A stretch of DNA of 64,000 nt from an uncultured Sulfurovum sp. (GTDB lineage: Bacteria; Campylobacterota; Campylobacteria; Campylobacterales; Sulfurovaceae), in the NCBI GenBank assembly GCA_947311605.1, contig CAMZLC010000058.1, forward strand, positions 4,707 through 68,706, read 5' to 3'. Numbering within the stretch: position 1 is the stretch's first letter; each line of letters starts with the position of its first letter. Shown one piece after another: positions 12,665-64,000 of the stretch. The notes under the pieces were generated by a model. That model saw nothing but the letters and a program-made list of their open reading frames with translations. It was not told the origin of the DNA and made no database searches. The translations under genes were made by a program, and so were the position numbers.

Positions 12665-12669
12665 ACCTT

Positions 12670-46684: not shown

Positions 46685-46716
46685 GAGAACCAATTAACCT
46701 TACATGGTGAGCAATC

Positions 46717-48432
46717 TTATAATCTGGGTAACAATTGTAAAAGCATTATTGTATTTGATTTATCTGGAATTATTCTATATAAATTCATAACATTGGAGTA
46801 AGTGTCAAGATATGTTTGAATCTCTGTTTTTGTTACAAGAATAACGTTTACCCGATCTCCAATGGCTTTCATGAAATTGGCAGAATACGAAAAGCTGTTC
46901 TCGGGCATAGATTTGTCGAAATATACATTAAACATCCAATAACATGACAATACTCCCCTTCCTAACATTTTATAGTCATCATAAATTCTTTTTGAAACAA
47001 AAACTGCCTGTTCAGGGGAAACTGTTTGGAGAACATTCTCAAATTCTCGATATGGTGTGAATCGATAATTACTCTGTGATTGGGCCTGATGGGTAACCAG
47101 TCGTTTTACGTTTCTTCCTACAGGTACAGCCAGTAGAGTGAGTAGGATGCATATAACGGCTACCTGCACCCCCTTCTGCTTTGACCACATTGCAATAAGA
47201 ATCATCATCCCTCCCAAACTCAATGGCGCAATGACAACTGAATAGGTAGTCAAAAAAGACCAGCCACTCGACAATGTATTTCTGGAAACGATCCAACATC
47301 CAAGGAGATACATAAGGTATATTCCAATGGAAACTATAATTGCATTTTGTTGAACAGAATATGTTTTTGATTTTATGTAATTATTATTAAATAAGTCTTG
47401 GCAAAAAATTTGAGGCGCCCATATGCAAAGTAGCGGGAGAACTAAAAAAAAGTATCTAGGTTCAGTGTGAAACCGACCATTCACTAACAATAAGGTAAGC
47501 GTGAAGATAACAACAAAAGGCAAACACCACAAAACACGAATCATAAAAGGCTTTTCCCGGCCAATATATTCCAGAGGCAGTGTCAACATGTATAAGAGGA
47601 ATGGTAATAATACAAAAGTACTGTTTGCATACTCTAGCCATGAATTGGAATTCCGTTTGAATTCACCAAAATTAAATAAAAATAATGCCTGGATATTAGC
47701 AAGTCGTAATTGAAAAAAGAAGTCACGTAGATAACAATAGTCCAGTATAGCCAGAATCAATCCACCTGCAAACATACCGCTGAAAATATAGCAAATGTCT
47801 ATTAAGCCTTTACCTGGCATGAACTTTTTTTCATCCCGAAACAGTAAACCTATTACAAGAAATGATAAACATACCCCAATTTCTTTTGTTTTTACCGATA
47901 AAAAGAGAATAACTCCAAACACCACAAAAGTGAGTACTCTACTTGTCCACACCTTGCAGGCATATAAATTATAAACAGTTACCCCTAGCAACACCATCGT
48001 CATAAGAGTTACGTCAACGTAGGTCACACCGGCAAAGTCAAACAACGCGGGCTGACTGAGAAAGAACATGACCGCAATTAATGCGTGTACAATGGATCGG
48101 GATAACAGATAAGAATTTACAATGATAAGAGTAATGGTTAGGGAAATTAAAAAACTCCAGAAACCAATCGTGCCAGCGAGCGAACTGCCGAATAAAAAAA
48201 AGAAAAAACGCTGTAGATAAATATGAAAATAACGATTTAGAATAAATGGATTTTGTTCGGGATTAAGAGAAAGGTTCATGTACAAAAGCTCATCCCATGT
48301 CAAAGATCCGCCAGAACAATAGAAAAACAATAACCAGATTAAACCAAAAAAAAATGCTAAAAGAAGTAAACTATTTCTGCCAGCAAACTGCTGGATCATA
48401 GGTTTATTCCTACTTTCGATAGTATTCAACAT
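46717..48432 (-). CDS. GT-C-like polytopic membrane glycosyltransferase (PMT_2/ArnT-like)
   Basis: More than 10 helices. First-loop motif SLTWDELLYMN. Lies directly downstream of a polyprenyl-phosphate GT2. Confidence 0.55.
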   Translation of the reverse strand: MLNTIESRNKPMIQQFAGRNSLLLLAFFFGLIWLLFFYCSGGSLTWDELLYMNLSLNPEQNPFILNRYFHIYLQRFFFFLFGSSLAGTIGFWSFLISLTITLIIVNSYLLSRSIVHALIAVMFFLSQPALFDFAGVTYVDVTLMTMVLLGVTVYNLYACKVWTSRVLTFVVFGVILFLSVKTKEIGVCLSFLVIGLLFRDEKKFMPGKGLIDICYIFSGMFAGGLILAILDYCYLRDFFFQLRLANIQALFLFNFGEFKRNSNSWLEYANSTFVLLPFLLYMLTLPLEYIGREKPFMIRVLWCLPFVVIFTLTLLLVNGRFHTEPRYFFLVLPLLCIWAPQIFCQDLFNNNYIKSKTYSVQQNAIIVSIGIYLMYLLGCWIVSRNTLSSGWSFLTTYSVVIAPLSLGGMMILIAMWSKQKGVQVAVICILLTLLAVPVGRNVKRLVTHQAQSQSNYRFTPYREFENVLQTVSPEQAVFVSKRIYDDYKMLGRGVLSCYWMFNVYFDKSMPENSFSYSANFMKAIGDRVNVILVTKTEIQTYLDTYSNVMNLYRIIPDKSNTIMLLQLLPRL

Positions 48433-48456: not shown

Positions 48457-49152
48457 TTAAACTTCATATATTCGATCTCCAATTTGTTTTTTATCTAAGA
48501 TATCGAATGTATTGTCTCTCTCATCTTGTATCTTTCCTGTACACTTTATATATGCATGCTTATTTGTTCCTGATTTTTTGCAAGTTAGACTTTCAAACTT
48601 GCTTAACAGGAACGAAAGAGACAGAAATGGCTTACTCCCTGCGATTGGATGATCTCCTAAAAAACCTTCTTTTTCCCAAATTGATTCATACTTATAAGAA
48701 ATAAAATTTTGGTAATACGTTATCTTTATATCAGAAAAATATTTTTCTAATATATGAATAGCCTTTTGAAAAAATGCGTCATTATCAATTTCTACGAGAA
48801 AACAGCCTTTTTTGTTTACAAGCTGGCTGAGTTTTTCAATGGCAATTGCTCGTTGTTCGAAATCCAAATGGCATAATGTGTTGGTACTGACGACTAGATC
48901 CACGCTATTCGATGGCAGATCGAATTCAGTGAGGCTTCCGTTCAATCCCACAGCATTCGGACAAAGGGCAGTGCCAGATTTCAACGCATCAAAAGAGATG
49001 TCCAAGCCAAAATATTGTTTTGTCTTAAAATATGGATAGCTTTTAAAAGCGGCTGATGCAGCATCAAGACCAATACCATCAGTTAATTGCGATAAGTCTC
49101 GGTCAAGTAATGACCAGAGAAATGTTTTGGAGGGGCGAACAGCAAGTCTCAT
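48457..49152 (-). CDS. Probable class I SAM-dependent methyltransferase (divergent motif I)
   Basis: YFGLDIS, VDLVVSTNTLCHL, LVNKKGCFLVEI. ATGA overlap with the upstream gene. Confidence 0.55.
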   Translation of the reverse strand: MRLAVRPSKTFLWSLLDRDLSQLTDGIGLDAASAAFKSYPYFKTKQYFGLDISFDALKSGTALCPNAVGLNGSLTEFDLPSNSVDLVVSTNTLCHLDFEQRAIAIEKLSQLVNKKGCFLVEIDNDAFFQKAIHILEKYFSDIKITYYQNFISYKYESIWEKEGFLGDHPIAGSKPFLSLSFLLSKFESLTCKKSGTNKHAYIKCTGKIQDERDNTFDILDKKQIGDRIYEV

Positions 49153-50444
49153 ATTTCTTCCTTAATAATTTTTAATTGTGACAAAAAGAAATTTGAATAA
49201 TAGCCTAAAACATCCACTCCTTTCGGTTCCACATAGGATCTCAAGCAATTTGTTCTTTCTTCTTTACTATATGTCCGGCACGTTTTATTGATAATCAACT
49301 GCCACATAAAGTGGCACAATTCTTCCTGGCAAATCACCGCCCACTCTTTCATTACCTGTTCGTGCACCATCCTATCCTGAGTTGCCCTTTTCAGAAAAAT
49401 AACAGGCTTATCTCTTCTTATACTTTCAAGCACGATGGAACTGTGTGTGAAAAAAGTCACGTCAGCCCACTCTATTAAATTGGGAGAAGGAATATCATTA
49501 CCAACTACCCTGATATTGTTTTTTCCACTAAAGTCATATTGCTCTCCCCTGGTATGAGATTTAATAAGCAAAAAGGTATCAGGAAAAGCAGCAATGTATG
49601 AAATAATTCTATCAAGTTCTTCTTTATATAACCTTCCATCTGGCTTCGTAGCCATCAAAACAATCTTCAAAACTTTTGGGGATAGTACCGGAAGTGGAAT
49701 ATCTGGAAGAATGTTTTTTTGCTTTAATATCCACTCCTTGCTAAACCTCACACTACCTAGGACTAAAGACTGCTTCTTTTCACTTAATCCCTGAGCAATC
49801 CCTGTATCGGCTTGCGATTGATTGGCATACAGAACGTAATCTGTTTGTAATTGAGGTAATGCCCTATGAGTTAAAGAAATTTCATCATTAGGATCCCAAT
49901 TCCTGCTACTACATGCGGTTCCTATGCCCGGTCCATGCGGAACAGCAACAGTAAGGTATCCTGCTGTTTTAGCGTAATTGATAAAGCTGTCATATTTCTT
50001 ATTCAGCTGATGATCAGTAACCAGTATTCCCGATGTTTGGCTAAATACTTTATCAAAAAACAATTCAGGCAATAAATCCTTATAGAACAATTCGAGTTTG
50101 TGCTGTACCTTTTTCCAGTATAATCTATAAGAGAGACTGGAATAAACCCTGGAGAATATATTCACTCCAGAATTTTTTGTTCCTCTTGACCGGGAAAAAA
50201 GCGCTGTATTGATACCGCAAAGATCAGCGATATGTATAATTCTGATACCAAGGGACGATAAAAACTGAACTCTGTAGTCAGTGTGGTAATCTTCAGTTAG
50301 GTTAAAGATAACACATGTCACCTTAACCCTACTGTCATCATTACTTATCCTGTAAATAATAGGAACCATATGATCGATATCATTATAGCTCCAGAAACAG
50401 AAGACAATATCTGAACGCAACAATTCCTTTGAATTTTCACACAT
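49149..50444 (-). CDS. Hypothetical protein, possibly a GT-B/TagF- or KpsS-like transferase
   Basis: No clear motif. The C-terminal pattern LIKSHTRGEQ...IRVVGNDIPSPNLIEWADVTFFTHSSIVLESIRRDKPVIFL resembles the C-domain of CDP-glycerol or capsule-type transferases. Confidence 0.35.
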   Translation of the reverse strand: MCENSKELLRSDIVFCFWSYNDIDHMVPIIYRISNDDSRVKVTCVIFNLTEDYHTDYRVQFLSSLGIRIIHIADLCGINTALFSRSRGTKNSGVNIFSRVYSSLSYRLYWKKVQHKLELFYKDLLPELFFDKVFSQTSGILVTDHQLNKKYDSFINYAKTAGYLTVAVPHGPGIGTACSSRNWDPNDEISLTHRALPQLQTDYVLYANQSQADTGIAQGLSEKKQSLVLGSVRFSKEWILKQKNILPDIPLPVLSPKVLKIVLMATKPDGRLYKEELDRIISYIAAFPDTFLLIKSHTRGEQYDFSGKNNIRVVGNDIPSPNLIEWADVTFFTHSSIVLESIRRDKPVIFLKRATQDRMVHEQVMKEWAVICQEELCHFMWQLIINKTCRTYSKEERTNCLRSYVEPKGVDVLGYYSNFFLSQLKIIKEEI

Positions 50445-50464: not shown

Positions 50465-51616
50465 CTATTGGGTTGTAATTCTATCTCTGTCAATTTCTAT
50501 GCCAAGCCCCGGTTTATCATTCATATGGAAAAAGCCATCTATGGGGACGAAAGGTTCAATTACAAGGTGGCTCCGCAAAGGATTACAAGTCGTGTTGCTT
50601 TCTACCATAACACAAGAAACTGAAGAGGCCGCTAAATGTAAATTAGCCGCACAATTGATGTCATTCGTCCAATTATGAAGGATGCAGCCCTTTCCCTCCT
50701 GCTGTGCACATTGTAATACATGCTTTGCTTCAGTCATTCCTGCAAGATTACAGTCAGGTTGCAAAATATCTAACGCTGGCAACCATTCCAGAAACTGATG
50801 CCTACTGACAAAACATTCCCCACCAGCAATCGGTACGGGTGAACGTTGAATCAACTGAACATAATCAACCAAAATTCTGGGAATAGGTTCTTCAATGAAA
50901 AGCAAATCCAAATCTTCTACTCGTATGGCAAAATCAAGAGCATCATCAACTGTGACCAAACGACAGCCAAGATCTACCATTAGATCCATACCACTACCAA
51001 CTGCCAGTCGAACATCCTCAAGGATTTTCACCATACCAGGAATATCTACTTTAGGAGGATGCTTATTTCGTTCAAAATGAGATGCTGTTACAGGAGTTTG
51101 CGGTCGCAGTTTCCAGGCAGTATAACCTTGTTCTTTGGCAAGTATGGCTTCCTCCACAAAAAGTTCGGTTGGTTCATGCTCATAATACATACCCCCACTG
51201 GCATAGGCACGTATCTTAGTTTTCACCTCTCCTGTTTGATTGATGAGCCGATAAACAGGAATTCCTACAGATTTACCGACAATATCCCATAAAGCCTGTG
51301 AAATTCCTGCTAAAGCTGCCTGTCGTGGGGTGTTTCCATATGCTGGAATTCCGAGATTCTCTAGCTGTACGGTTAACAATGAAACCTGAAAGGGATCTTT
51401 ACCAATAAATATATTCTTCAGAAGATCAGCAATTTCCTTTTGAATATCCTCGAGTTTACCTCCGTATGGCCCAGGCTCTCCAAATCCGATAATGCCTTCA
51501 TCGGTATGGATTTCAAGAAATATTGCACCATCTGCGACATACGACGCAGTTGGATGTGGGTAACTTACAGGTAAACCCGCTCTTATGACAAATGATTTAA
51601 TATCAGTGATTTTCAT
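50465..51616 (-). CDS. Enolase-superfamily enzyme (mandelate racemase/muconate lactonizing subgroup; acid-sugar dehydratase-like)
   Basis: Metal ligands are placed as expected: LMVDLG (Asp), LFIEEP (Glu), IAGGE (Glu). A QPD...HNW Asp/His dyad is present. N-terminal capping domain IIGFGEP. Confidence 0.8.
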   Translation of the reverse strand: MKITDIKSFVIRAGLPVSYPHPTASYVADGAIFLEIHTDEGIIGFGEPGPYGGKLEDIQKEIADLLKNIFIGKDPFQVSLLTVQLENLGIPAYGNTPRQAALAGISQALWDIVGKSVGIPVYRLINQTGEVKTKIRAYASGGMYYEHEPTELFVEEAILAKEQGYTAWKLRPQTPVTASHFERNKHPPKVDIPGMVKILEDVRLAVGSGMDLMVDLGCRLVTVDDALDFAIRVEDLDLLFIEEPIPRILVDYVQLIQRSPVPIAGGECFVSRHQFLEWLPALDILQPDCNLAGMTEAKHVLQCAQQEGKGCILHNWTNDINCAANLHLAASSVSCVMVESNTTCNPLRSHLVIEPFVPIDGFFHMNDKPGLGIEIDRDRITTQ

Positions 51617-51660
51617 AAATGGCTATACTCAGGTAGATTTAGGAGGTTCCGAAACTACAT

Positions 51661-52398
51661 TCATTGCTGTAAATACAAAAACTCTGCTATCTGAAAATCC
51701 AGTTCAGAATCTATATCCACGGCCTCAATTTCAGGAAGAACAACAGCCTTAGATTGTTGCCCCAGCCAGTGCCCCTTAGGACAACCACCCTCCATAAGCC
51801 TGCCACCACGTAAGTAAAAACCACCAGTAATATAAAAAGCCTCCTTTCTATCCTGTCGTCTCTTAACTTTTTCAGAATTTGCAGAGCATGTGGGGCAGAA
51901 TGATGACAAAGATCCGTCCTTGGCAATGCTTTTAGCAATATATGGATGCCCCTGAGTAAATTGAGCGATGGTACAAACACTATCACAACCACTATTAATC
52001 ATGATTTGAATAGCTTTTTCCATAGATTCTTTAGATAAAAAAGGTGCTGTGGGCTGAAGCGATATTATCGCATCATATTTTACCCCTTTGTCCAAATAGA
52101 ATTTATACGAATGGTATATCACCTGGGCAAGCTGTGCGGTATCACTTGCAAGTTCAGGCGGGCGTATAAAAGGTACTTCGATACCAGCCTTTTTAGCAAT
52201 AGCCATCAATTCCTGATCTTCTGTGGAAATAATAACCTTATCTATCGCATGAACCTGATGGGCAGTATGCGCAATATGGGCGATAAGCGGCTTGTCTCCA
52301 AGAGTACGTAGATTTTTTCTTGGAACACCTTTTGAGCCACCTCTAGCAGGTATTACTGCAAGAACCTTAAAACTGTTATCTGACTTGGAATCATTCAT
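51661..52398 (-). CDS. Acylneuraminate/Kdo-type cytidylyltransferase (CMP-sugar synthetase, NeuA/KdsB superfamily)
   Basis: LAVIPARGGSKGVPRKNLRTLGDKPLIAH, STEDQE, IRPPELASDTA, SLQPTAPF. Confidence 0.85.
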   Translation of the reverse strand: MNDSKSDNSFKVLAVIPARGGSKGVPRKNLRTLGDKPLIAHIAHTAHQVHAIDKVIISTEDQELMAIAKKAGIEVPFIRPPELASDTAQLAQVIYHSYKFYLDKGVKYDAIISLQPTAPFLSKESMEKAIQIMINSGCDSVCTIAQFTQGHPYIAKSIAKDGSLSSFCPTCSANSEKVKRRQDRKEAFYITGGFYLRGGRLMEGGCPKGHWLGQQSKAVVLPEIEAVDIDSELDFQIAEFLYLQQ

Positions 52399-53357
52399 AT
52401 CTTCGTTGTAATGCCTGTTTCTGTCACTGCTTCCAAAATGATTTTTTTATGATGATCACTCAACTGTTCACCTGGGATTCTCACAGGTCCAGATGGAAGT
52501 CCAACTATCCTCATAACTTCTTTAAATCCACGATATCCAGTTAAGCGAATAACATTTGCCAATGGCCATTCCTTATTCACCAAATCAATTGCTTTTTCGT
52601 AAGAGCCCTCTTTTACAAAATTGAAAAAGTTTTCTTCATGGTCAGGATCAAACCATGCATAGTTGGTATGCCTAGCGGATGCCCCCCATATCAATGACCA
52701 CAGTTGTAAGGGCTTATGCAGGCCATCATAGCTGGCAACTTTCTGACCAAGCGTACTATAAATCGCCTGCCTGGCACATGGGTCAGCCATATGGATTTTT
52801 AAGCAGACAATATTTTCAATTTGTGAAATTCTTTCTAAAGCATCATAGGAAAGACCGAGACCATTCCCAAAAAGCTTATCATGAAAAACCAGAGGTGCAC
52901 CTGTATCAACCGCAAACTTTTCCATATAATCAACATAATAATCATCGTGTCTATCTGCAGAATATCCTGATCGCAAATACTTGCAGTTAAAGAAGGTGCT
53001 GCCTTCTTTAATGGGAACGGGCATTACAACAATGGCGGTAGCCCCAGCATCATAAAGCATTTTAGCCTCAGTAGTCTGTTCTTCCCCCCATCCCCCACCA
53101 ACAGCTTGAGCTAAAACGATTCCATTGTCACCAACCGCCAAAGACACTGTTTTGGTTACTTCAATCCGTTCACTTAAAGTCATAAATCCAAATTCTGAAG
53201 CAGAATGCGCCAGATAAAAGACCTTCATATTATGCTCTAAAAGAAAAGAAATGTGATCACGATATCCCTGTAAATTTACAGACAGATCTTTATTAAATTG
53301 ACCAGGTACAGGCACAACATTGCCGATAATTTTATTTCCAACAGTTTGAAAGTCCAT
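52395..53357 (-). CDS. DapA/NanA-family class I (Schiff-base) aldolase-like protein
   Basis: GNVVPVPGQF..., HSASEFGFMTLSERIEV (GxxGE..Ls..Er block), and VCLKIHM as the candidate Schiff-base Lys. ATGA overlap with the next gene. Confidence 0.65.
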   Translation of the reverse strand: MDFQTVGNKIIGNVVPVPGQFNKDLSVNLQGYRDHISFLLEHNMKVFYLAHSASEFGFMTLSERIEVTKTVSLAVGDNGIVLAQAVGGGWGEEQTTEAKMLYDAGATAIVVMPVPIKEGSTFFNCKYLRSGYSADRHDDYYVDYMEKFAVDTGAPLVFHDKLFGNGLGLSYDALERISQIENIVCLKIHMADPCARQAIYSTLGQKVASYDGLHKPLQLWSLIWGASARHTNYAWFDPDHEENFFNFVKEGSYEKAIDLVNKEWPLANVIRLTGYRGFKEVMRIVGLPSGPVRIPGEQLSDHHKKIILEAVTETGITTKI

Positions 53358-53389
53358 AATGTATCGATAGATTAAAAGTTATAGTTCCG

Positions 53390-54727
53390 TTAAGAACATT
53401 TGGTTTCTATATATTCTGCAATTTTGAGCTTGAGAGTAGATTCAATACAAAATTTTTCTATATCATTGTCCACATCAATGAGTCCAACTTTTTTACCTAG
53501 TTTTTTTCCACCATAAATAGCTTCTGGGTGAGTAAGACATCCAAGCCCCATGATACCACGATACAAAGGGGTCTTTAACTTTGATGGTACCATACCTTCA
53601 TCGACCCTTATCAGCTCATCACCTTCAGGCCGCCAAAGAGATCCGTATTCCCGATAGGCAGCAATCACACTATCATATCCACCGTGGAGAAGTCCTTCAA
53701 TCATCCGGTCTATTAATTTATCCGACCGAAATGGAAACTCTTCCTCCAATAAAAAAATTAAATCGGGATAATAGTTTTTGTCAGCCAATTGATCCAGTAC
53801 ATATTTGTAAACCTGGACTAATGAAATATAGGGAAAAGATAGATCTTTTGGCCTCAATATAGCAGTTGTGTTCAGCTTGTCTGCGATATCAATCGTTTCA
53901 TTATTATCAGAAGCAATAACAATCTTGTTTAGCAACTTTGATTTTTTTGCATTTGCAATGGTTTTTTCTATCAAATATCGGCCGTTTATCTTTCTGGGAG
54001 CACCTCTTGAAGGAATAATAGCAACAATATTAAGTCCTTCTAAAACACAACTATATTTTTGATTATGAATTTGTTCCAGTATTCTAACTATCCCCTTTGC
54101 CCTGGTTACATTTCGTCCCTGGTTGATACCATGGTAGTGATAAACACTAGCCTCTGGTTCATAAATTATTTGATATCCATTTTTTAGAATCTTCTGAGCC
54201 CAGATTCTATCTTCTATATGATCAGCTCCTTCATCAAAAGGAAATTCATCCCAGACAACACGCTTCACCATACTGTTTGCATTATGAAAAAAAGGATCTT
54301 TCTTTTGATACTTTTTGTCCAAACCGAAAATATTTATAAGATCACGTTTATCTAAGTCACTCGTAAAAGAAAGTGGCTCTTGCCGGCCATAGACACCTGC
54401 AGTTTCAGGGGAAGTGAAATTTCTAACTAAATTCTCCAGCCAATACTGATCAACAGGGATACAATGTGCTGAAATAACAACAAAGTACTCGCCTGTAGAC
54501 GCCTGAACCCCAAGATTGATAGCATAACCAGGTTTAAAAACATCAGCTTCATAACGTATAACATTTACATCAAAAGCCTTGGCTTTTTCGATGGTACGAT
54601 CCGTACTCTTGTTATCAACCAGAACAACTTCAATATCCTGAATAGATTGACTAAAAATGGCATCTAAACATGAAGTAATCCATTTTTCTTCATTTCTAGA
54701 TCTAATGATTATGGATATTTTCTTCAT
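53390..54727 (-). CDS. Fusion protein: N-terminal GT2 (GT-A) domain plus C-terminal cytidylyltransferase-like domain
   Basis: The N-domain has ISIIIRSRNEEKWI...VVLVDNKSTDRT. From about aa 231 (53390..54037): NIVAIIPSRGAPRKINGRYLIEKTI...IASDNNE...LRPKDLS, a NeuA-like layout with a degenerate glycine-rich loop. Confidence 0.7.
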   Translation of the reverse strand: MKKISIIIRSRNEEKWITSCLDAIFSQSIQDIEVVLVDNKSTDRTIEKAKAFDVNVIRYEADVFKPGYAINLGVQASTGEYFVVISAHCIPVDQYWLENLVRNFTSPETAGVYGRQEPLSFTSDLDKRDLINIFGLDKKYQKKDPFFHNANSMVKRVVWDEFPFDEGADHIEDRIWAQKILKNGYQIIYEPEASVYHYHGINQGRNVTRAKGIVRILEQIHNQKYSCVLEGLNIVAIIPSRGAPRKINGRYLIEKTIANAKKSKLLNKIVIASDNNETIDIADKLNTTAILRPKDLSFPYISLVQVYKYVLDQLADKNYYPDLIFLLEEEFPFRSDKLIDRMIEGLLHGGYDSVIAAYREYGSLWRPEGDELIRVDEGMVPSKLKTPLYRGIMGLGCLTHPEAIYGGKKLGKKVGLIDVDNDIEKFCIESTLKLKIAEYIETKCS

Positions 54728-54766
54728 ATGTTTCTCTTTCCAGGTTCATTTAAAACCAACCTGCCT

Positions 54767-55405
54767 TCAGTCTTTAAAATCTTCATCAATATATTTCGAG
54801 ATATCACCTTCTATCCTTTCTAAATCCAAGTTAAAAAAAGACGCATTTTGTTTAATTCGCTCTTCAGGCCAATCCCACCATTGAATGGTTTCAAGTTGAT
54901 CGATAATATCTTGACTGAACCTCCAACGATGCTGACGGCTTGGATTACCGTAATTAACAGAATAAGAAGCAATATTTTTAGTTAGCACACTTCCTGCTCC
55001 GATCACAGCCCCATTCCCAATTGACACACCAGGTAATATTGTTACATTTTCCCCTATCCAGACATTATGTCCAAGAACAACAGGTCCATTGGTTTTGACA
55101 ATACTCTTAAACCCATGTTTTCGTTGAAATCCTATCTGCACATTTGGATAACAAGTGTGATGATCTGTTGTTAAAATATGTATCCCATATCCCAATGCAC
55201 AATATCTTCCGATAACACAATTTTCACTCCCGCGTATATTAATCGCACCATTTATTCTACTGTAATCTCCAATCTCAATTCGTGGACATTGAATAACAGA
55301 TTCCATTGGCAACCGAACATCATTACCCAGTATAATTTCAATTTTCCTGCCTGGATCTACAACCAGTTCCATTTCAGGGAGTAATGACATTCCGTATTCC
55401 ATCAA
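54767..55405 (-). CDS. Hexapeptide-repeat acetyltransferase of the Vat/CatB (xenobiotic acetyltransferase) type
   Basis: LbH repeats, [28 protein letters not shown], and the C-terminal WWDWPEERI block. The start is uncertain: ATGs at 55405, 55390 and 55372, the last 1 nt after the upstream TGA. Confidence 0.8.
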
Positions 55406-56294
55406 GTTCGCTTACAAGATTACTAAAATCAGAAAAACCTAATGCCTGTAGTGGATCAACCCATGCCTGTTCTGGATCAGGATGAACTTCAATTAGCAAA
55501 CCGTCTGCACCTGCTGCAATAGCAGCACGAGACATGGCAGCAACATATTTTCGCTTAAAAGTAGCATGACTGGGGTCAATGATTACTGGGACAGAAGGCG
55601 CATATTCTTTAAGAGCTGGAATAGCCTGAATATCCAAAATTGCACGAGAATCAACATTATGTGTATGAGCAACAGAGACGCCTCTTTCGCAAATGGCAAA
55701 ATTATGTTTTCCGCGCGCCTCAAAATGTTCACAAACTCCTAATAAAGAACGTAAACTTTCTCCATAATGGCGTTTAATAAGTAGCGGTTTAGCCGTTTTA
55801 GCTAAAACCTCTATTAAATCCATATTAAACATGTGCCGATATCCTATTTGAAACATATCAACATAGTCGGTCATCATATCAATGGAAGAGGCATAAGTTA
55901 TTTCAGAAACGACTGCTAATCCGTATTTTTCACCAGCTTCTCTGAGATAAGCCAATCGTTTCTCTGCCGCCTTAAACATTTCAGGTAAAGTCATCACAAC
56001 ATTGCGATCAAGGCCAGTGCCTTTTGCACCCGCATCAGGCTGCCCAAGAGGATCTCCGTAGGGAAAAGTCAAAGGTTTAAAAACGCCACCTCGCAACATA
56101 GTAGCTCCAGCCTCTTTAACAGCCTTTGCAGTTTCAAGAATTTGATCGCGGCTCTCTACTGTGCATGGCCCGGCCATATGGGTTAATTCCTTGCCACCAA
56201 TTTCTACATTACCCGCAATAACCTCACGTTTATAATCCTGCCGACATACAAGAGGGATATTATTTTGCAGATCACTTTCTGATATATCTTTCAT
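55374..56294 (-). CDS. DAHP synthase / KDO8P synthase family (type I-beta) aldolase with an altered KPRT motif
   Basis: [68 protein letters not shown]. Metal ligands Cys, His, Glu and Asp are all present. The motif reads KPLT where KPRT/S is expected. Confidence 0.8.
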
Positions 56295-56352
56295 TTGGTG
56301 TCCTTATTTAATATATGAATGCTATGATTTACTTTAATCAGTAAAACGTTTG

Positions 56353-57402
56353 TCAAACCTTTGCCATTGTACTTCTTACCAAGTCACGATCAGATAACCG
56401 CAACTTTGCAGCAACAGTGGCCATATCATATGCAATAACAGCCTGCTCTAGGTTCATTTCTCTACCATTAAGAGTGTTGCAACCTGCCAGACCAGCCAGG
56501 AAAAGTAAAACTGTTTCTTCAGGTTGATATATAATATCAAAAACCATAGGACTGTCTGCGGCAATGAGTATCTCCATTGCCTGGTTGAGGTTTTTCTTTA
56601 CAGACTCTCTCACCTGCCGACAATATGCTCTCTCCCCTTCATCTGTATTCACTGGAACATTTGCAGTTTTGTCGATTGAGCCGATAGAAGTATATGGCCG
56701 GAGACTTATAAATCCTCCTCCATCCCGAAGCATATTTTCAAATCCAATTGAAGAACAATTAATAATAATATCAGTATTAGCAACATCGCTAGTGTTTATT
56801 GGCCAGCCAATAGAAGAACTCTTGCAAACATCTCCTAATTTATCTGCGAGTATCATCGCAGAATGCTCATTCCTGTTGGATAATAATATTGTCCCCTGTG
56901 CCCCGATCTCATTGGCAACGTACGTGGCAACGGCACTTCCTGCACCACCTGTACCAATTAATAGTATTTTCTTCCCATTGAGATCTTCACCATTTTTCTT
57001 GAGTTTTTCCGTGAGGCTCCACAAAGCACCTGCACCATCTGTATTCGTTCCAACCAACCCCGCTTGACTTCGATAGATACAATTAACAGCACCTATTATT
57101 TTTGCTTCAGGCTGAACCTTATCCAAAAATGGTAATATCTCTACTTTATACGGCATTGTAACCGCACCACCGATAAAACGAGAATCATCTTTCAAGGCAG
57201 CTACTACATACTCCAACCGGTTAGGTGGTAAATCCATTGGGTGCATAAAAGCAGAAATATCTTCCCGCTGAAAAGCAGCATTCCACAACAATGGTGAACG
57301 GGCCCCCTGTGAAGGCGATTCACCAAGAATTGCTGCATAATAGCGCGTTGCGCCAAAATCTAAAGTATCGCCATTACTTAGTAAAGAAGTTAATTGATTC
57401 AT
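56353..57402 (-). CDS. Shikimate/quinate dehydrogenase family oxidoreductase (AroE-like paralogue)
   Basis: AILGESPSQGARSPLLWNAAF, VTMPYK (catalytic Lys), NTDGAGAL (catalytic Asp), LLIGTGGAGSAVA (NAD(P) fold). Confidence 0.8.
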   Translation of the reverse strand: MNQLTSLLSNGDTLDFGATRYYAAILGESPSQGARSPLLWNAAFQREDISAFMHPMDLPPNRLEYVVAALKDDSRFIGGAVTMPYKVEILPFLDKVQPEAKIIGAVNCIYRSQAGLVGTNTDGAGALWSLTEKLKKNGEDLNGKKILLIGTGGAGSAVATYVANEIGAQGTILLSNRNEHSAMILADKLGDVCKSSSIGWPINTSDVANTDIIINCSSIGFENMLRDGGGFISLRPYTSIGSIDKTANVPVNTDEGERAYCRQVRESVKKNLNQAMEILIAADSPMVFDIIYQPEETVLLFLAGLAGCNTLNGREMNLEQAVIAYDMATVAAKLRLSDRDLVRSTMAKV

Positions 57403-57437
57403 ATTCTATTACCTCTTCCAAAAGAACCGGAGTGGTT

Positions 57438-58493
57438 TTATCGACCGAGTTTATCAGAGAGTAGTCGATCTTTCATTGCGATCCAACCTCCCGTTTCAAC
57501 ACTTTTATAGAGAGCATGAACAAAATTAACAACTGGCAAACTGGCAGTACCAGTAATTGGAGGATCTATCCTGCCAGCAGCGAGTCTGTCAATTATTTCC
57601 TGCATCAAAGGACCATGGGATAAGCCATATCCAGTTGGCACTTCCTGGGAATAATCAGTTGGAATTGTAGTATCTTCCGGGATCTTCTCAACAAAATCCC
57701 AGGTATCAATGTTGTTTAGAGCAATACCGCCAATTACTGCCAGTCCTTTTTCTCCAACAATGGACATGGATGCTTCAAAATCTTCAGGCCTGGCTGCAGT
57801 GGTTGCCTCGATGGCACCTAAAGCACCGCTTTCAAAAAGTAACGAACCAACCATTGTATCTTCTGCTTCAAGATCATTTAGAGCATTCGTCTTGAGAGCA
57901 CATACCTTCGCGACCGGGCCACAAACCCACTGTAAAGCATCAAGATGATGAATAGCCTGCTGATTAATAACACCACCATCCATTTTCCAGGTACCATGCC
58001 AACCATCTTCATAATAATCCTGATAACGACACCAGCGAAGACGAATAGTGGCCAGCACGATCTTACCAAATCGACCAGCATCAAAAGTTTCTTTGAGTTT
58101 AATCATGGCAGGATTAAGGCGATTCTGGAAAATCACTGCATACATCAAGCCCTTTTCAGCTGCAAGCTTCTCATCTTTTAATACTTGATCTGGCAATAAA
58201 GCTGGTGGTTTTTCAACAATTACATGTTTGCCGGCATTAAGTGCCGCCTGGACATGTCTATGATGATTTCCTGATTCTGTTGCAATTAAAATAACATCAA
58301 CATCTTTCCTCAAAAACAACTCTGTATCATCGGTCAGTGGAACTGCATCAAACAAAGCTGCAGTTTTCTCAGCTTTTTCTAAATCTTTATCACAAACTGC
58401 TGTGATTACAGCCCCTTGAAGTTCGTTAAGGAAAACATCATTATATCTATTTTGTACAACACGACCTGCTGCAAGTATCCCGATCCGTATCAC
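57438..58493 (-). CDS. Gfo/Idh/MocA family NAD(P)-dependent oxidoreductase
   Basis: IRIGILAAGRV, IVEKPPAL, C-terminal alpha/beta dimerisation-domain pattern. GTG start preceded by GAGAGG at 6 nt. Confidence 0.85.
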   Translation of the reverse strand: MIRIGILAAGRVVQNRYNDVFLNELQGAVITAVCDKDLEKAEKTAALFDAVPLTDDTELFLRKDVDVILIATESGNHHRHVQAALNAGKHVIVEKPPALLPDQVLKDEKLAAEKGLMYAVIFQNRLNPAMIKLKETFDAGRFGKIVLATIRLRWCRYQDYYEDGWHGTWKMDGGVINQQAIHHLDALQWVCGPVAKVCALKTNALNDLEAEDTMVGSLLFESGALGAIEATTAARPEDFEASMSIVGEKGLAVIGGIALNNIDTWDFVEKIPEDTTIPTDYSQEVPTGYGLSHGPLMQEIIDRLAAGRIDPPITGTASLPVVNFVHALYKSVETGGWIAMKDRLLSDKLGR

Positions 58494-58519: not shown

Positions 58520-60304
58520 TCAACTAATAATGCACTGGTTCTCGCACATCCTGGAGAAGCGGGAACCTTTTCGTTCCAACAATTCATCCCAGGATCCTTT
58601 TTCAATTATTTTCCCATCTTCAACAATATAGATAATATCACAGATTTTCAACGTCGATAGGCGATGTGCCACAAGAATCATAGTCTTGCTACCTAACATT
58701 GCCTGTATACTGTTCTGAATAGATTTTTCAGATTCAGTATCGAGTGCTGATGTCGCTTCGTCAAATATCAAAATTTCTCGAGACAAATACAGCTCCCTGG
58801 CAATGGAGATACGCTGGCGCTGCCCACCTGACAACTTAACCCCCTTATCTCCAACTTTGGTGGAATAGCCCTCTGGAGCTTGCTCAATCAACTCATTGCA
58901 ATTTGCCATATTCACGGCTTGGTAAACACGTTTCCATTCCTGCTCTGTATCTCTAAACTTCATCAAGGTGATGTTATTCAGAATGGTATCATTAAACACA
59001 ACCGGTTCCTGAGTAATATACCCGAAAAGAGAACGTAACGAGTACATATCAATATCATTATAAGATTTTCCGTCAAGCAGAACATTCCCTTTGGAGGGAA
59101 CAACCAAGCCAGTAATAAGATCAAGAATGGTGGTTTTACCAGACCCTGACGGCCCGGCAATACCAATACAGGTGTTTTTTTGAATATTAATACTTACACT
59201 TTTTAGTATTATATCCTCACCATAAGCGACATTAACACAATCAACAGACAAGGATGAATTAAAACCATTTATACAGGTCCCATACGTCCTTTCCTGGTTA
59301 ACCGCTAAAGCTTTCTTTGCAATTTCGACCGTACGTACGCCACCAATCATACCGCAAAAACTTTGCCATCGTTCCTGAGCCAAAAAAAGATAGGTAATAC
59401 CTTTATGAATAAAAAGAACAGGAATCAGTGCAGTTATTACACTTTGTCCTCGAATTTCCACAATATAATAAAAAACGACGAGAAAGAGCAGGATTTTGAT
59501 AAAGGCAAAAGTAGAATTCGTGAAGGCGTTAAGGAGTTGGGTTGAAAACATCAACCTTGTATTTACCTTTATTTCATTAGTTAGGGAGGCCGATACAGTT
59601 GCTGCATTGCCAGTAGATTTCAAGTATTTAAAATAATGAATGAATTGAATAAAGAAATCCTGGATTTTGGCATTTGAATTTGCCAATTCAAATGAAAATC
59701 CCGAGGACAATATCCGAATTTTCTTAAACAGAAAATGTACTGTTGCACCCGCTGAGATAATAATTATTGTAAAATACAGATTAATAGCTAGCGACATCGA
59801 CAAAAATACCATTGCTGAACAAAGTGCAACCACGACTTCAGAATAGCGGCGAAAGGACCCTATTGTGGTATCGCACTCCTTATTCACAATATTATTAAAA
59901 TATCCTGTCGTAGTATTGACAAAATAGCTGTATTTCATCTTGCTATATTCAACAGCAAAATATGTCTTCAGTTCCCTGAGGAAAGAATTAATGATATAGA
60001 GACGGGATACTTCCTGGAATAAGTAAAAAACTGATTTCAGGAAAAATACAATAACAATAAAAATTATCAGCGAAGAAAACGTCTTCTCAAGGTTAAAAAA
60101 ATCTAATATTGTTGTAAGAATTCTAGAAATATAATCTTGCGAATCAACCTTTGAGTTCAAGGTCAAAAGAGGAACGACACTAGCAATACCCAGGCTTTCT
60201 AATAGTGTTGCAATAAGGGACAACACTATAAACAGGTAAAATGACCAACCAGTATAACTTCTAAAAACAGAAAAATAATATCCAAAAGAACCAAGTTTCA
60301 ACAT
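58520..60304 (-). CDS. Fused TMD-NBD ABC exporter (MsbA/PglK-like type IV exporter fold)
   Basis: Six N-terminal TM helices. Walker A GPSGSGKTT, signature LSGGQRQRISIAREL, Walker B ILIFDEATSALD. Confidence 0.9.
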   Translation of the reverse strand: MLKLGSFGYYFSVFRSYTGWSFYLFIVLSLIATLLESLGIASVVPLLTLNSKVDSQDYISRILTTILDFFNLEKTFSSLIIFIVIVFFLKSVFYLFQEVSRLYIINSFLRELKTYFAVEYSKMKYSYFVNTTTGYFNNIVNKECDTTIGSFRRYSEVVVALCSAMVFLSMSLAINLYFTIIIISAGATVHFLFKKIRILSSGFSFELANSNAKIQDFFIQFIHYFKYLKSTGNAATVSASLTNEIKVNTRLMFSTQLLNAFTNSTFAFIKILLFLVVFYYIVEIRGQSVITALIPVLFIHKGITYLFLAQERWQSFCGMIGGVRTVEIAKKALAVNQERTYGTCINGFNSSLSVDCVNVAYGEDIILKSVSINIQKNTCIGIAGPSGSGKTTILDLITGLVVPSKGNVLLDGKSYNDIDMYSLRSLFGYITQEPVVFNDTILNNITLMKFRDTEQEWKRVYQAVNMANCNELIEQAPEGYSTKVGDKGVKLSGGQRQRISIARELYLSREILIFDEATSALDTESEKSIQNSIQAMLGSKTMILVAHRLSTLKICDIIYIVEDGKIIEKGSWDELLERKGSRFSRMCENQCIIS

Positions 60305-60934: not shown

Positions 60935-62392
60935 TTATGAAGTGGAACTCAAATAGTAACTATCTGTGCCAATTGCTTTGATAAAAACAGGTGATTTCAA
61001 ACCGATTGCATCAGAAAAAATGGATACTTTTGCACTAATTTCATCATGTGAAATTCCGGGGAATTTGTTACGTTTTAGTCCCTCTACATCAGTGTCAGCC
61101 TGTCTGTTTATTTGTCGATGGCAGAGTGATTTGACCATAGTTACTACCATACTCAACAAAGATGATTGTGCTACCGTAGAAATTGAAGCAGATTCTTCCT
61201 CAAGATGCCCTTGGCATCTTTTCTCCCACACTGGTGTTCGCTTTAAAATAAAATCAGCTATTGTACCAGCTGAATATAATCCAACATTAGCGATATATTT
61301 TTCTATTAGCTCAAAATCATATATTTCCGAATACACACCGATTCCTTGTTGCCCATCCACACAATCCTGGACGACCTCTAACAATATACCAAGGTCTGTT
61401 ATCTTATAGCCAGCCTCAACAGGCAACCATTGAACCAGTTCAGGATCATAAGCAGGACAGAAAGAGATAGTTAATTTGCCCATCAACATTGCTTCAATAC
61501 CCGTAGTGCAGTCGTGATGTATAACCGTAAGGGCTCCGTTTATCCAGTTTTGTGCATTTCCTTCTCTAATTACATGGATATTACTAATTTCTGCAAAGAG
61601 CTGCTGATAAGTATTCAAATTTTCGACAGGATGTGGACGAATAACAATATCCTTATCTTTAAAACGCTCAGCCAGCGCAAGTATCATTTCCACAAATCCA
61701 TCAAAAACAGTCTGTTGATACTCCTCTTCTCTGTTAATTCTCTCAGGGTTAAAATAATCGCCCCCAACTTTTTTGTCGTATTCTCTCAAGAAAGCATTCT
61801 TCTTATCAAACTTAATACGGCCTTCACAGCCAAGTTGATTATTTACAAAGGCAAAATCTGTGTTTATCAAAATATAGTCCGGCTTTATTGTTTCTTTGCC
61901 ACAAGAAATAGTTTGATGGTAGCTATTAAATTCAGGTCTGCATAAATCAAATCGAGGATTGCCAGAAACTACATTTTTATTCTTATCCAATGATGTTTTT
62001 TGCTCTAATAACTCATTCCTAATTTCTTCCCCCCAAGAGAAATATACGTCAAGAAAAGGAATTGTTTCATCTGTCAGCCGAAGACATACATTAGATAATG
62101 ACCTAGTAAAAACTCCACCTTCCTCATCCAAGATAGCGAGAATACCGCCAGCTTTTTTAATTCTCGGATCTATTGCACCATTTATTCCTTTTGCTATATA
62201 TACAAACGGCTGTCTTTCTTGAAACATATACTGATGAACTTCTTCTTTTTTCCCAAGAATACAATCAAACCCTCGCTTGATAAGCTCAAGACATAAAAGT
62301 AAACGCCCTTCAAAATCTCTTTGAATAACTTCAATCGGTAAAACACAATACATAAGATTATAATAAGTTTGATAAGCTCGTAAAAAGGTCAA
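60935..62392 (-). CDS. Hypothetical surface-carbohydrate biosynthesis protein, possibly GT-B/capsule-type transferase-like
   Basis: N-terminal PIEVIQRDFEGRLLLCLELIKRGFDCILG. C-terminal IRPHPVEN...IHVIREGNAQNWINGALTVIHHDCTTGIEAMLMGK resembles the C-domain of capsule or TagF-type enzymes. The ORF-track start is a TTG; the first ATG is at 62353. Confidence 0.35.
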   Translation of the reverse strand: MTFLRAYQTYYNLMYCVLPIEVIQRDFEGRLLLCLELIKRGFDCILGKKEEVHQYMFQERQPFVYIAKGINGAIDPRIKKAGGILAILDEEGGVFTRSLSNVCLRLTDETIPFLDVYFSWGEEIRNELLEQKTSLDKNKNVVSGNPRFDLCRPEFNSYHQTISCGKETIKPDYILINTDFAFVNNQLGCEGRIKFDKKNAFLREYDKKVGGDYFNPERINREEEYQQTVFDGFVEMILALAERFKDKDIVIRPHPVENLNTYQQLFAEISNIHVIREGNAQNWINGALTVIHHDCTTGIEAMLMGKLTISFCPAYDPELVQWLPVEAGYKITDLGILLEVVQDCVDGQQGIGVYSEIYDFELIEKYIANVGLYSAGTIADFILKRTPVWEKRCQGHLEEESASISTVAQSSLLSMVVTMVKSLCHRQINRQADTDVEGLKRNKFPGISHDEISAKVSIFSDAIGLKSPVFIKAIGTDSYYLSSTS

Positions 62393-62581: not shown

Positions 62582-63271
62582 CTAACGCCAAACTTGGCGT
62601 AAAACACCAAAAGCCTCTGCAACAGAAAAACCAGCATGAGCTCCTCTTAGTATGGCCTGAGACTCAATAGCCTTGTATGACCGAGAATGAGGGAATGCTT
62701 TCATTTCAGAATCGTAACAATGTAAAGCCTCGAGTTTCCGATGATACGTATTTGTGATATCAACCGAATGCACAGGTGAAAACGTTCCTGTCTGTCCGGA
62801 TAGGCTCAACTCAGTGCTGGAAAGTACTTCAAAACTAAATATAGCCGTGATCTTACTAGAAGGAGATGGACGACATGCGGTCAGTACAGCACGATGGGTA
62901 ATCTGATGATCAATATTCAAATCATAGCCGTGGTGGGTGTAAATAATATCAGGATTAATTTTTTCTATAAAGGGTTCTATTAGCTGCACAACTTCCAATA
63001 AGGACAGGCTGTCCATCCTGTTATCTGGTAAATTCAATAAAATAGGTGCGTGAGCACCTAAAATTGCTGCGGCATCAGCAGAAACCTGATTTCTTAAATC
63101 CACATCTTTTTGCCCCTTCCCTCTGGAAGTGACACCATCTGCCAGAATGAGCACATATACATCATCTCCTTGATCAGCATGCTTGGCAATGGTACCACCA
63201 CACCCCAACACCTCATCATCTTGATGAGCTGCAACAACTAATATTGTCTCTTTATTTTTGTGGGTTACCAT
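62582..63271 (-). CDS. PIG-L/LmbE family N-acetyl-sugar deacetylase
   Basis: ILVVAAHQDDEVLGCGGTI plus the downstream HxDH-type block (HHGYDLNIDHQITH). Confidence 0.85.
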   Translation of the reverse strand: MVTHKNKETILVVAAHQDDEVLGCGGTIAKHADQGDDVYVLILADGVTSRGKGQKDVDLRNQVSADAAAILGAHAPILLNLPDNRMDSLSLLEVVQLIEPFIEKINPDIIYTHHGYDLNIDHQITHRAVLTACRPSPSSKITAIFSFEVLSSTELSLSGQTGTFSPVHSVDITNTYHRKLEALHCYDSEMKAFPHSRSYKAIESQAILRGAHAGFSVAEAFGVLRQVWR

Positions 63272-63969: not shown

Positions 63970-64000
63970 ACCATCTCCTTATATAAAAACATCGTAAAAT

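Follow-up and report, generated by a model that had tools for sequence, protein, structure and literature searches.

A block of eight consecutive minus-strand genes at 50465-58493 of a 64,000-nucleotide stretch of DNA from an uncultured Sulfurovum sp. (GenBank assembly GCA_947311605.1, contig CAMZLC010000058.1; the whole stretch analysed is called the window here) had been read in an initial annotation as an undescribed pathway for a cytidine monophosphate (CMP)-activated 3-deoxy-2-ulosonic acid, distinct from the shikimate, lysine, Kdo (3-deoxy-D-manno-octulosonate) and NeuB routes. Our analysis supports this reading through the subfamily of the synthase, the linkage of the genes, their glycan context and the literature. 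The conserved part of the block is likely to be a modular pathway, spread by horizontal transfer, that makes a CMP-activated 3-deoxy-2-ulosonic acid for a surface glycan. Ulosonic acids such as Kdo and the sialic, pseudaminic and legionaminic acids cap bacterial surfaces and govern immune recognition, phage adsorption and envelope charge. To our knowledge, all described ulosonic acid routes use KdsA or NeuB. With the cassette, a third lineage of synthase seems to have been recruited independently, namely a 3-deoxy-D-arabino-heptulosonate 7-phosphate (DAHP) synthase that gave up its phosphate site; both the bacterial surface sugar and this route to ulosonic acids would be new. Searchable full text, which leaves subscription journals mostly outside, contained no description of a cassette of DAHP synthase-like, AroE-like and CMP-transferase genes.

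The eight open reading frames (ORFs) of the block were recovered with exactly the coordinates given in the initial annotation. In the direction of transcription, they encode a Gfo/Idh/MocA oxidoreductase (57438-58493, 351 aa; Pfam), an AroE-family dehydrogenase (56353-57402, 349 aa; Shikimate_dh_N and Shikimate_DH), a putative phosphoenolpyruvate (PEP) aldolase derived from type I-beta DAHP synthase (55374-56294, 306 aa; DAHP_synth_1, PF00793), a hexapeptide acetyltransferase of the Vat/CatB type (54767-55405, 211-212 aa; Pfam and NCBIfam), a fusion of a family 2 glycosyltransferase domain with a cytidylyltransferase domain (GT2::CT fusion, 53390-54727; Glycos_transf_2 and CTP_transf_3), a DapA-like protein of the dihydrodipicolinate synthase/N-acetylneuraminate lyase (DHDPS/NAL) family (52395-53357, 320 aa; PF00701), a NeuA/PseF-type CMP-transferase (51661-52398, 245 aa; CTP_transf_3) and an acid-sugar dehydratase of the enolase superfamily (50465-51616, 383 aa; MR_MLE_N and MR_MLE_C). 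The co-directional ORFs are separated by gaps of 20-58 bp or overlap by 4-32 bp. A promoter and terminator scan of the block, with counts close to the shuffled expectation, gave no terminator-like site between its genes. Families were called with Pfam and NCBIfam profiles, and structures were AlphaFold2 (AF2) models searched with Foldseek. Both profile sets agree with the family first assigned to each of the eight genes, as does the model search for the fusion. All NCBIfam matches of the eight proteins fall below the curated equivalog cut-offs. By their sequences, the proteins are family members and not recognisable orthologues of characterised enzymes.

The synthase (55374-56294) appears to belong to a distinct DAHP synthase-derived subfamily. 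Its match to PF00793 (146 bits) assigns it the TIM-barrel fold. It scored 266 and 232 bits with the NCBIfam models for type I-beta DAHP synthase (cut-offs 335 and 268), as compared to at most 98 bits with the models for 3-deoxy-D-manno-octulosonate 8-phosphate (KDO8P) synthase (cut-offs 242-457), and its alignments to solved structures gave 197 bits for DAHP synthase vs. 61 bits for KDO8P synthase. The AF2 model (pLDDT 86) matched the type I-beta DAHP synthases 1vs1, 1zco and 1rzm with Foldseek TM-scores of 0.87-0.89, and KDO8P synthase with about 0.8. Residues C44, H243, E269, D280, R68, K73, R153, K174 and R204 are invariant in 21 sequences (the synthase and 20 homologues). From published DAHP synthase structures, we take the first four to be metal ligands and the other five to be PEP-binding residues. 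The Arg (and Ser) of the DAHP synthase motif KPRT(S) bind the phosphate of erythrose 4-phosphate (E4P). This motif is changed to K73-P-L75-T in the synthase, and the next Ser is replaced by F77 (SPY to F77-P-Y). Among the 120 best homologues (68-100% identity), KP(L/M)TFP is present in all 120 and the KPRT Arg in none. The beta2-alpha2 loop carries an insertion of about 30 residues (residues 80-110), and the family-specific motifs GYRHMFN, KRHYGES and a HTH-containing loop replace the canonical ones. A tblastn search against plasmids and phages returned only canonical AroF, with at most 41% identity to the synthase; public annotation names its homologues "3-deoxy-7-phosphoheptulonate synthase". 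From these residue changes we infer a PEP- and metal-dependent aldolase whose acceptor has no phosphate at the usual site. A non-phosphorylated acceptor fits since there is no conserved phosphatase in the cassette at the annotated loci.

A pattern scan with one genome per species gave 26 loci of this cassette, and exact-protein look-ups added two from cultured bacteria, Desulfatibacillum aliphaticivorans and Desulfovibrio mangrovi. The hosts include Desulfobacterota, Omnitrophota, Dehalococcoidia, Elusimicrobia, Myxococcia, Victivallales and Planctomycetales, together with four lineages of the candidate phyla radiation (CPR), namely Parcubacteria, Saccharibacteria, Uhrbacteria and Staskawiczbacteria, about ten (mostly uncultivated) phyla in all. 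The window proteins were compared by BLAST with all ORFs of the 28 loci. A CMP-transferase gene lies beside the DAHP synthase-like gene in 25 of the 28, the GT2::CT fusion was found in about 20 of the 22 loci with enough flanking sequence (in L037 by Pfam), and the Gfo and AroE-like genes together in 17. The DapA-like gene was detected in 7 loci, the acetyltransferase in 5 and the enolase-type dehydratase in 2. The gene order of a Desulfocapsaceae metagenome-assembled genome (MAG; L011) is exactly that of the window. Because the same genes recur in the same order in other phyla, the arrangement is more than chance. The block thus comprises a five-gene core (Gfo, AroE-like, DAHP synthase-like, CMP-transferase and GT2::CT fusion) and three accessory genes. 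The eight genes of the initial proposal are therefore separable rather than a single fixed unit. Likewise, the three enzyme families said to handle ulosonic acids are all present in the block, but only one is conserved with the cassette.

The neighbours of the cassette in all loci inspected are glycosyltransferases, flippases and sugar-nucleotide genes. No shikimate or lysine gene was found near the cassette in the window or in six annotated loci, which answers the question raised at the outset of whether homologous blocks sit with such genes. No Kdo gene accompanies the cassette, and both the block and the conserved cassette lack SIS (KdsD) and KdsC-type families. NeuB/PseI/LegI (PF03102) is absent from inside the cassette in the block, L007, L036 and L037; in Desulfovibrio mangrovi a NeuB gene lies downstream of it.

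The CMP-transferase (51661-52398) is, on sequence grounds, NeuA/PseF-like rather than KdsB-like. It scored 148 bits with the PseF model TIGR03584 (cut-off 206) and at most 65 bits with the KdsB models (cut-offs 155-281), and in the Protein Data Bank (PDB) it matched NeuA 9ftb with 105 bits and KdsB with 37 bits. Its catalytic motifs are intact: R19 and K28 of the P-loop, Q115 of QPT(S/A)P, and D228-x-D230 of the DxD Mg site. The GT2::CT fusion (53390-54727) consists of a GT-A domain (residues 1-220) and a NeuA-fold domain (residues 230-445; AF2 pLDDT 87). The latter gave Foldseek TM-scores of 0.74-0.84 with 6ifd, 1eyr, 9t4z and 9ftc (CMP-Neu5Ac, CMP-Kdn and CMP-Pse synthetases). The two CMP-transferase domains noted at first thus both have the NeuA-type fold, but most homologues of the second are without the conserved P-loop Arg/Lys. 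In 27 fusion homologues, the P-loop Arg/Lys and DxD residues lie outside the invariant columns and are absent from most. The window's copy carries SRGAPRK and DVD, so that its C-terminal domain may itself be catalytically active; alternatively, binding of CMP or a CMP-sugar may be all that this cytidylyltransferase domain does.

The strongly conserved GT-A domain (PF00535, 88 bits; Foldseek matches SpsA and PcManGT) at the N-terminus of the fusion has invariant D38 and D43. Its DXD position, aligned to DAD of 6yv7, is S86-A-H88, and S-x-H is found in 116 of 120 homologues; its first loop has R9 and K/R11 instead of the usual Pro and Tyr. We read the fusion as a putative nucleotide-sugar enzyme that needs no metal, joined to a domain that binds CMP or a CMP-sugar. 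Our preferred guess is that it frees the aldose as a nucleotide-sugar hydrolase, like PseG or NeuC, with feedback sensing of the CMP-sugar; alternatively, it is a dedicated CMP-sugar transferase. The idea of an acceptor-specific transferase is weakened because the candidate transferases of nonulosonic acid or Kdo type vary by locus. We also considered a polyprenyl-phosphate transferase feeding a GT-C enzyme and rejected it: near the cassette there are only polytopic proteins of Wzx size (10-13 transmembrane helices), in some loci. The CMP-transferase and fusion pair is a more general module. It also occurs at L038:1553-10341, L039:8278-11104 and the P0205 locus, where the neighbours include Gfo and Ldh_2, 2-hydroxyacid dehydrogenase, ketol-acid reductoisomerase (KARI)-like, short-chain dehydrogenase/reductase (SDR), B12-radical-SAM and methyltransferase genes. 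These loci may be further uncharacterised CMP-acid-sugar pathways.

Wherever upstream sequence is available, one of three mutually exclusive gene pairs fills the slot directly upstream of the synthase. Module A, the Gfo and AroE-like pair, is present in the window and 13 loci. Module A', in four CPR loci, has the reversed order and pairs a different Gfo protein with an AroE protein of 215 bits, above the aroE cut-off of 200. Module B, in nine loci, consists of an IolO-like TIM-barrel epimerase (297 bits, cut-off 300) and an IolB/KduI-like cupin isomerase (192 bits, cut-off 205). In the Victivallales MAG (L032:2202-4430), a Gfo-like region lies in a 743-codon frame directly before the CMP-transferase and synthase, and no AroE-like gene was detected at that locus; the frame may be a fusion or a different module.

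The best PDB sequence matches of the Gfo protein (57438-58493) are 3q2k (200 bits) and 3q2i (178 bits), both over the full length and both taken here to be WlbA (UDP-GlcNAcA 3-dehydrogenase), followed by glucuronide-3-dehydrogenase 8tdi, the C-glycoside 3-oxidase DgpA and WbpB 3o9z. In this search, its nearest characterised relatives are sugar C3-dehydrogenases, several of which act on hexuronates. The AroE-like gene is always paired with a Gfo gene in the 28-locus comparison and is directly preceded by one in 13 other loci (55-72% identity). The AroE-like protein scored 147 bits with the aroE model TIGR00507 (cut-off 200). It keeps the two-domain fold and the catalytic dyad K86 (VTMPYK) and D122 (NTD), whose integrity had been correctly noted from the sequence. 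Of the shikimate-binding set, N107, Y292 and Q320 are kept, SxS is A34-R-S36, and the Asn of NVT is A80. An insertion of about 45 residues follows residue 221. The protein aligns with a sugar-acting member of the family, the 5-ketofructose reductase 7cok, at E = 3e-20. We propose that the Gfo protein may be a sugar C3-dehydrogenase, the first half of a redox pair that edits stereochemistry, and that the AroE-like protein may be a keto-sugar reductase.

No synthase residue that separates A-type from B-type loci was found in the alignment, and synthase identity is 0.66 between module types and 0.67-0.71 within them. Because the synthase is the same across module types, the modules appear interchangeable; the simplest reading is that they do the same job for the same synthase and make the same unusual non-phosphorylated aldose. 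For isomerase and epimerase chemistry the sugar has to be free and carry an alpha-hydroxy carbonyl, a group that is missing in a 3-deoxy-2-ulosonic acid. Module B therefore would act before the condensation, and the job of the module is most likely the preparation of the acceptor. Inversion of an aldose at C3 (and C2) is possible with an isomerase plus a ketose 3-epimerase, and equally with an oxidase plus a reductase via a 3-keto sugar. That C3 is inverted before condensation is a tentative reading, to which we give somewhat less than even weight, and a C3-epimerised, hexuronate-type product of the module is a guess. We suspect that the acceptor is an acid sugar because of the hexuronate-acting relatives of the Gfo protein, the 5-keto-aldonate and uronate substrates of IolO and IolB, and the nucleotide-sugar 6-dehydrogenase genes that precede the cassette in seven loci.

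The pathway that we propose follows the gene order; the families, residue changes and gene linkage behind it are observed, and all substrates and the order of the steps are inferred. A common sugar precursor would first be oxidised by the Gfo/Idh/MocA enzyme at one of its ring hydroxyls, most likely that of C3, and the AroE-like enzyme would reduce the ketone from the opposite face to give a rare epimer. The DAHP synthase-derived, metal-dependent aldolase would then join PEP to the non-phosphorylated aldose. A phosphatase of the KdsC type would be unneeded because the synthase is without the E4P-phosphate site. The NeuA/PseF-like enzyme would form the CMP-sugar, and locus-specific transferases would put the sugar onto the glycan; transferase families that use nonulosonic acids or Kdo adjoin the cassette in several loci. 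The fusion, the fifth core component, would be a hydrolase that frees the aldose, joined to a domain that senses the CMP-sugar, but this is a guess. A heptulosonic or heptulosaric product had been offered at first as one speculative possibility. A product of C9 size would fit better, because the CMP-transferase is NeuA/PseF-like and the upstream modules are of uronate type. A more specific version has a small chance of being right: the acceptor would be a C3-epimerised hexuronic acid and the product a nine-carbon 3-deoxy-non-2-ulosaric (dicarboxylic) acid. The acceptor would then arise by 3-oxidation and re-reduction (WlbA-like Gfo and AroE-like) or by a uronate isomerase and a 5-keto-aldonate epimerase (IolB/IolO-like), with the GT-A domain of the fusion as a UDP-sugar hydrolase and its NeuA-like domain as a CMP-sugar feedback sensor. 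For the plant and algal sugar 3-deoxy-lyxo-heptulosaric acid (Dha), the activated form and biosynthesis were still unidentified in a 2012 review (PMC3355719). If the non-2-ulosaric product is true, it would be a CMP-sugar class new to all organisms and the first enzymology of any ulosaric acid.

Several observations weigh against the proposed pathway. In the Myxococcia MAG (L020:4534-7270), IolO-like and IolB-like genes stand with a DAHP synthase-like gene, but no CMP-transferase or GT2::CT gene was found within 10 kb downstream, an exception to the linkage. Conversely, fusion homologues (47-49% identity) and CMP-transferases occur together also without a DAHP synthase-like or NeuB gene. The role of the fusion is a guess, and the DapA-like and enolase-type genes are left unexplained by the pathway. 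The conserved R97 and R113 in the loop insertion of the synthase might rebuild an anion site, so that a phosphorylated or carboxylated acceptor could be used. The same genes could also work in another order, with an ordinary aldose condensed first and the Gfo and AroE-like enzymes epimerising at the CMP-sugar stage. There is precedent for a Gfo oxidase and a reductase with a CMP-transferase in ElaA/ElaB/ElaC of Acinetobacter, where ElaA (Gfo/Idh/MocA) and ElaC (SDR) epimerise C8 of CMP-legionaminic acid (PMC13656337). EpaA and EpaB carry out the same kind of C8 epimerisation for pseudaminic acid, and EpaA is a CTP_transf_3 domain fused to a tailoring domain (PMC12053666), a precedent for a fusion of this kind. 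Moreover, a ulosonic acid in pyranose form is similar to quinate and shikimate, and in the AroE-like protein the Tyr that binds the carboxylate is retained, as is one Ser of the pair. The slot is, however, filled by IolO-like and IolB-like genes in nine loci, whose chemistry needs a free alpha-hydroxy carbonyl that neither a 3-deoxy-2-ulosonic acid nor its CMP ester offers; the lack of any synthase difference across module types argues for the same acceptor, and the pair precedes the synthase in gene order. We therefore give this order of events only a modest chance.

There is a slim chance that the cassette makes a known sugar, Kdo, Kdn (3-deoxy-D-glycero-D-galacto-non-2-ulosonic acid) or similar, by a non-orthologous route and involves no new monosaccharide. 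The product is not fixed by sequence: PEP and D-arabinose would give Kdo, and PEP and D-mannose would give Kdn. KdsA or NeuB may also be missing in CPR and other lineages. Neither Kdo nor Kdn, however, needs a two-enzyme module for stereo-inversion; a NeuB-type pathway is already present in the window's operon, and NeuB adjoins the cassette in D. mangrovi. Transferases of O-methyl and O-acetyl groups turn up repeatedly beside the cassette, whose upstream modules look like acid-sugar enzymes. It is very unlikely that the CMP-activated product is built into a small molecule (for example a natural product or cofactor) or a lipid head group rather than into a glycan. The CMP-transferase and fusion do occur beside radical-SAM, methyltransferase and 2-hydroxyacid dehydrogenase genes where no synthase can be recognised, but the neighbours in the window and all inspected loci are sugar-nucleotide enzymes, glycosyltransferases, flippases of the Wzx or ABC type, a priming phosphoglycosyl transferase and a WaaL-like ligase. 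Least credible, to the point of being nearly dismissed, is the explanation that a glycan operon happens to include ordinary enzymes of the shikimate and lysine pathways. The database name of the synthase would suit it, as would the catalytic residues present in the DAHP synthase-like, AroE-like and DapA-like proteins and the A' AroE protein, which exceeds its cut-off. All three window proteins, however, fall below the equivalog cut-offs, the Arg for the E4P phosphate is gone in all 120 homologues, the DapA-like protein is without the Tyr/Thr triad, the linkage to CMP-transferases is constant, and neither the window nor the six annotated loci showed any further shikimate or lysine gene. The pathway for a CMP-activated ulosonic acid, with its acceptor prepared before condensation, remains the reading that we prefer.

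The acetyltransferase, DapA-like and enolase-type genes are proposed to be optional tailoring genes. The acetyltransferase, a left-handed beta-helix protein whose best NCBIfam match is Vat/CatB (121 bits), is confined to its five loci of the Desulfobacterota/Omnitrophota type; metagenome gene calls start it one codon later (211 aa). It probably O-acetylates the sugar. The DapA-like protein is very divergent; it matched PF00701 with 52 bits, KdgD as the best NCBIfam model with 39-44 bits (cut-offs 278-374), and its best PDB entry at E = 1e-7. Its Schiff-base Lys, K187, lines up with that in the active site of 3cpr and does not vary among 8 homologues. The equivalent of Tyr133 is H159, and GTTGE is changed to H51-S-A-S-E55, so that the protein is without the Tyr133/Thr44 proton relay. 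The enolase-type protein has MR_MLE domains of 149 and 63 bits, scored 157 bits as galactonate dehydratase (cut-off 311) and matched 3sjn and 5olc in the PDB; its gene occurs only in L011 and L030. Dehydratases of the galactonate type require a substrate that ends in -CH(OH)-COO-, unlike the 2-keto end of a ulosonic acid. The gene is compatible with a second carboxylate on the sugar or with a separate aldonate substrate.

Immediately upstream of the block lies a gene for a 594-aa ABC exporter of the MsbA/PglK type (58520-60304, minus strand), a probable lipid-linked glycan flippase. Its homologues adjoin the cassette in L007, L010, L013, L016, L026, L030 and L034. The gene immediately downstream of the block (49149-50444, minus strand) encodes a soluble 431-aa protein without a Pfam, NCBIfam or PDB sequence match, and 6 loci of Desulfobacterota have a homologue (24-26% identity) next to the cassette. 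When 14 homologues were combined into a profile, it matched the beta-Kdo transferase WbbB (5fa0) at a non-significant E = 0.3; the protein is a candidate transferase. The 485-aa protein at 60935-62392 (minus strand) has no Pfam match but scored 266 bits with TIGR04396, "surface carbohydrate biosynthesis protein" (cut-off 125), and 85 bits with the BFO_1060 family. BFO_1060 is an orthologue of the Tannerella forsythia Pse/Leg transferases (PMC5420450). The protein at 60935-62392 is likely a nonulosonic-acid transferase, and it may serve either the cassette of the block or the upstream NeuB pathway. TIGR04396/BFO_1060-like candidates are found in the window and three CPR loci. The D. aliphaticivorans cassette (L007) has instead a Capsule_synth protein of the KpsC/KpsS beta-Kdo transferase family (22.5 bits, cut-off 20).

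A B12-binding radical-SAM enzyme (L007:11662-13032) and this Capsule_synth protein (L007:17313-18671) belong to the D. aliphaticivorans cassette, in which the radical-SAM gene sits between the CMP-transferase and acetyltransferase genes. A gene of TIGR04371, "NanM-type putative sugar O-methyltransferase", lies just downstream of the cassette at L036:13031-13996, L017:13493-14428 and in L016, L018, L021, L027 and L030. This recurrence suggests that the cassette sugar is often O-methylated. The window's own methyltransferase (48457-49152) is of a different type.

The block is part of a glycan locus that spans more than 55 kb and whose genes share one direction. This locus contains a PglC-like priming transferase and N,N'-diacetylbacillosamine (diNAcBac)-type PglF, aminotransferase and acetyltransferase genes, a WaaL-like ligase, Wzm and Wzt with a Wzt_C carbohydrate-binding domain, GtrA-like and GT-C-like membrane proteins, and more than 12 GT2/GT4 genes. 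At 24357-31965 (minus strand) is a kit for an ABC-type O-polysaccharide, with Wzt bearing the C-terminal carbohydrate-binding domain, Wzm and a WaaL-like Wzy_C protein, to which a PglF-like protein, a DegT aminotransferase, a hexapeptide acetyltransferase and a PglC-like Bac_transf protein are added. The Wzt_C domain usually reads a chain-terminating cap, which is beta-Kdo in Klebsiella O12. By analogy, it is conceivable that a ulosonic acid is the cap read by Wzt_C in this locus. The 571-aa protein at 46717-48432 (minus strand) has about 12 predicted membrane helices, a GT-C-like shape and no family match. Together with a small GtrA-family membrane protein (43390-43848, minus strand) and a GT2 protein (45800-46693), it looks like a GtrA/B/C-type set for periplasmic glycan modification. 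Four further minus-strand ORFs of the locus, 8117-10498, 10811-12685, 35283-37412 and 37406-38632 (793, 624, 709 and 408 aa), have no Pfam family at E <= 1e-5.

The scanned ORFs of the window include no aroB/D/K/A/C, lysine, kdsD/kdsC or neuB/neuC family, as had been noted at first. For the operon this does not hold, since a NeuB gene lies just past the right edge of the window. A metagenome contig (L040:1-6500) is identical to window positions 62912-64000 (100% over 1089 bp) and runs 6.5 kb further. It encodes a 261-aa CTP_transf_3 protein, an Aminotran_3 protein, a PseG-like Glyco_tran_28_C protein, NeuB, two methyltransferases and a GNAT protein. This canonical NeuB-type set is followed, in order, by the WbqC and PIG-L genes that lie inside the window. 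The operon thus carries two different ulosonic acid pathways in tandem, the second of which is of the NeuB/pseudaminic type.

Besides a synthase lineage of its own, the cassette suggests that an AroE-family enzyme works on sugars and that the genes spread horizontally, including to CPR bacteria, whose surface chemistry is essentially unknown. Since the cassette genes are annotated as shikimate enzymes, metabolic reconstructions of such genomes may be wrong. The hypothesis can be tested directly in two cultured hosts, D. aliphaticivorans and D. mangrovi.

Among known systems, the nonulosonic acid routes (NeuC/NeuB/NeuA, PseB-I/PseF and Leg) resemble the proposed pathway in that an unusual non-phosphorylated aldose is joined to PEP and activated directly with CTP, without a phosphatase, for a surface glycan. 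The cassette synthase, however, is a derivative of type I-beta DAHP synthase (PF00793) and not NeuB (PF03102). The core has no dehydratase, aminotransferase or N-acetyltransferase, and its aldose would come from the Gfo and AroE-like or the IolO/IolB-like pair. The Kdo pathway (KdsD/KdsA/KdsC/KdsB) shares the synthase superfamily through KdsA, an aldose-forming step at the start and a CMP-activated 3-deoxy-2-ulosonic product. Compared to it, the cassette has a synthase that is closer to DAHP synthase and has lost the phosphate-binding Arg, no KdsD (SIS) or KdsC (HAD), and a NeuA-like transferase.

The ElaA/B/C and EpaA/B systems also place an oxidase/reductase pair beside a CMP-transferase, and EpaA is likewise a cytidylyltransferase fusion. 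The reductase of the cassette is of the AroE family, not an SDR or aldo-keto reductase. Its pair can be replaced by an isomerase and an epimerase, which suggests action on the free sugar before condensation. WlbA/WbpB and the glucuronide and C-glycoside 3-dehydrogenases (Gfo/Idh/MocA) are the closest relatives of the protein at 57438-58493 in the structural database; they oxidise the C3-OH of a sugar with NAD(P), and several of them take hexuronates. The ketone is transaminated in the WlbA pathway, whereas the cassette has no conserved aminotransferase and an AroE-like reductase comes next. Module B is nearly equivalog to both IolO (5-keto-L-gluconate epimerase) and IolB (5-deoxyglucuronate isomerase), whose chemistries are those of an acid-sugar ketose 3-epimerase and a uronate/ketoaldonate isomerase. 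Unlike the genes of inositol catabolism, module B adjoins a PEP aldolase and a CMP-transferase in a biosynthetic setting without IolG/E/D/C/J genes. Closest to the synthase itself is type I-beta DAHP synthase (AroF of Thermotoga, Pyrococcus and Aeropyrum), which shares its fold, the Cys/His/Glu/Asp metal site and the Arg/Lys residues for PEP, but the cassette enzyme is set apart by KPLT and Phe, the loop insertion, its own motifs and a glycan rather than an aromatic context.

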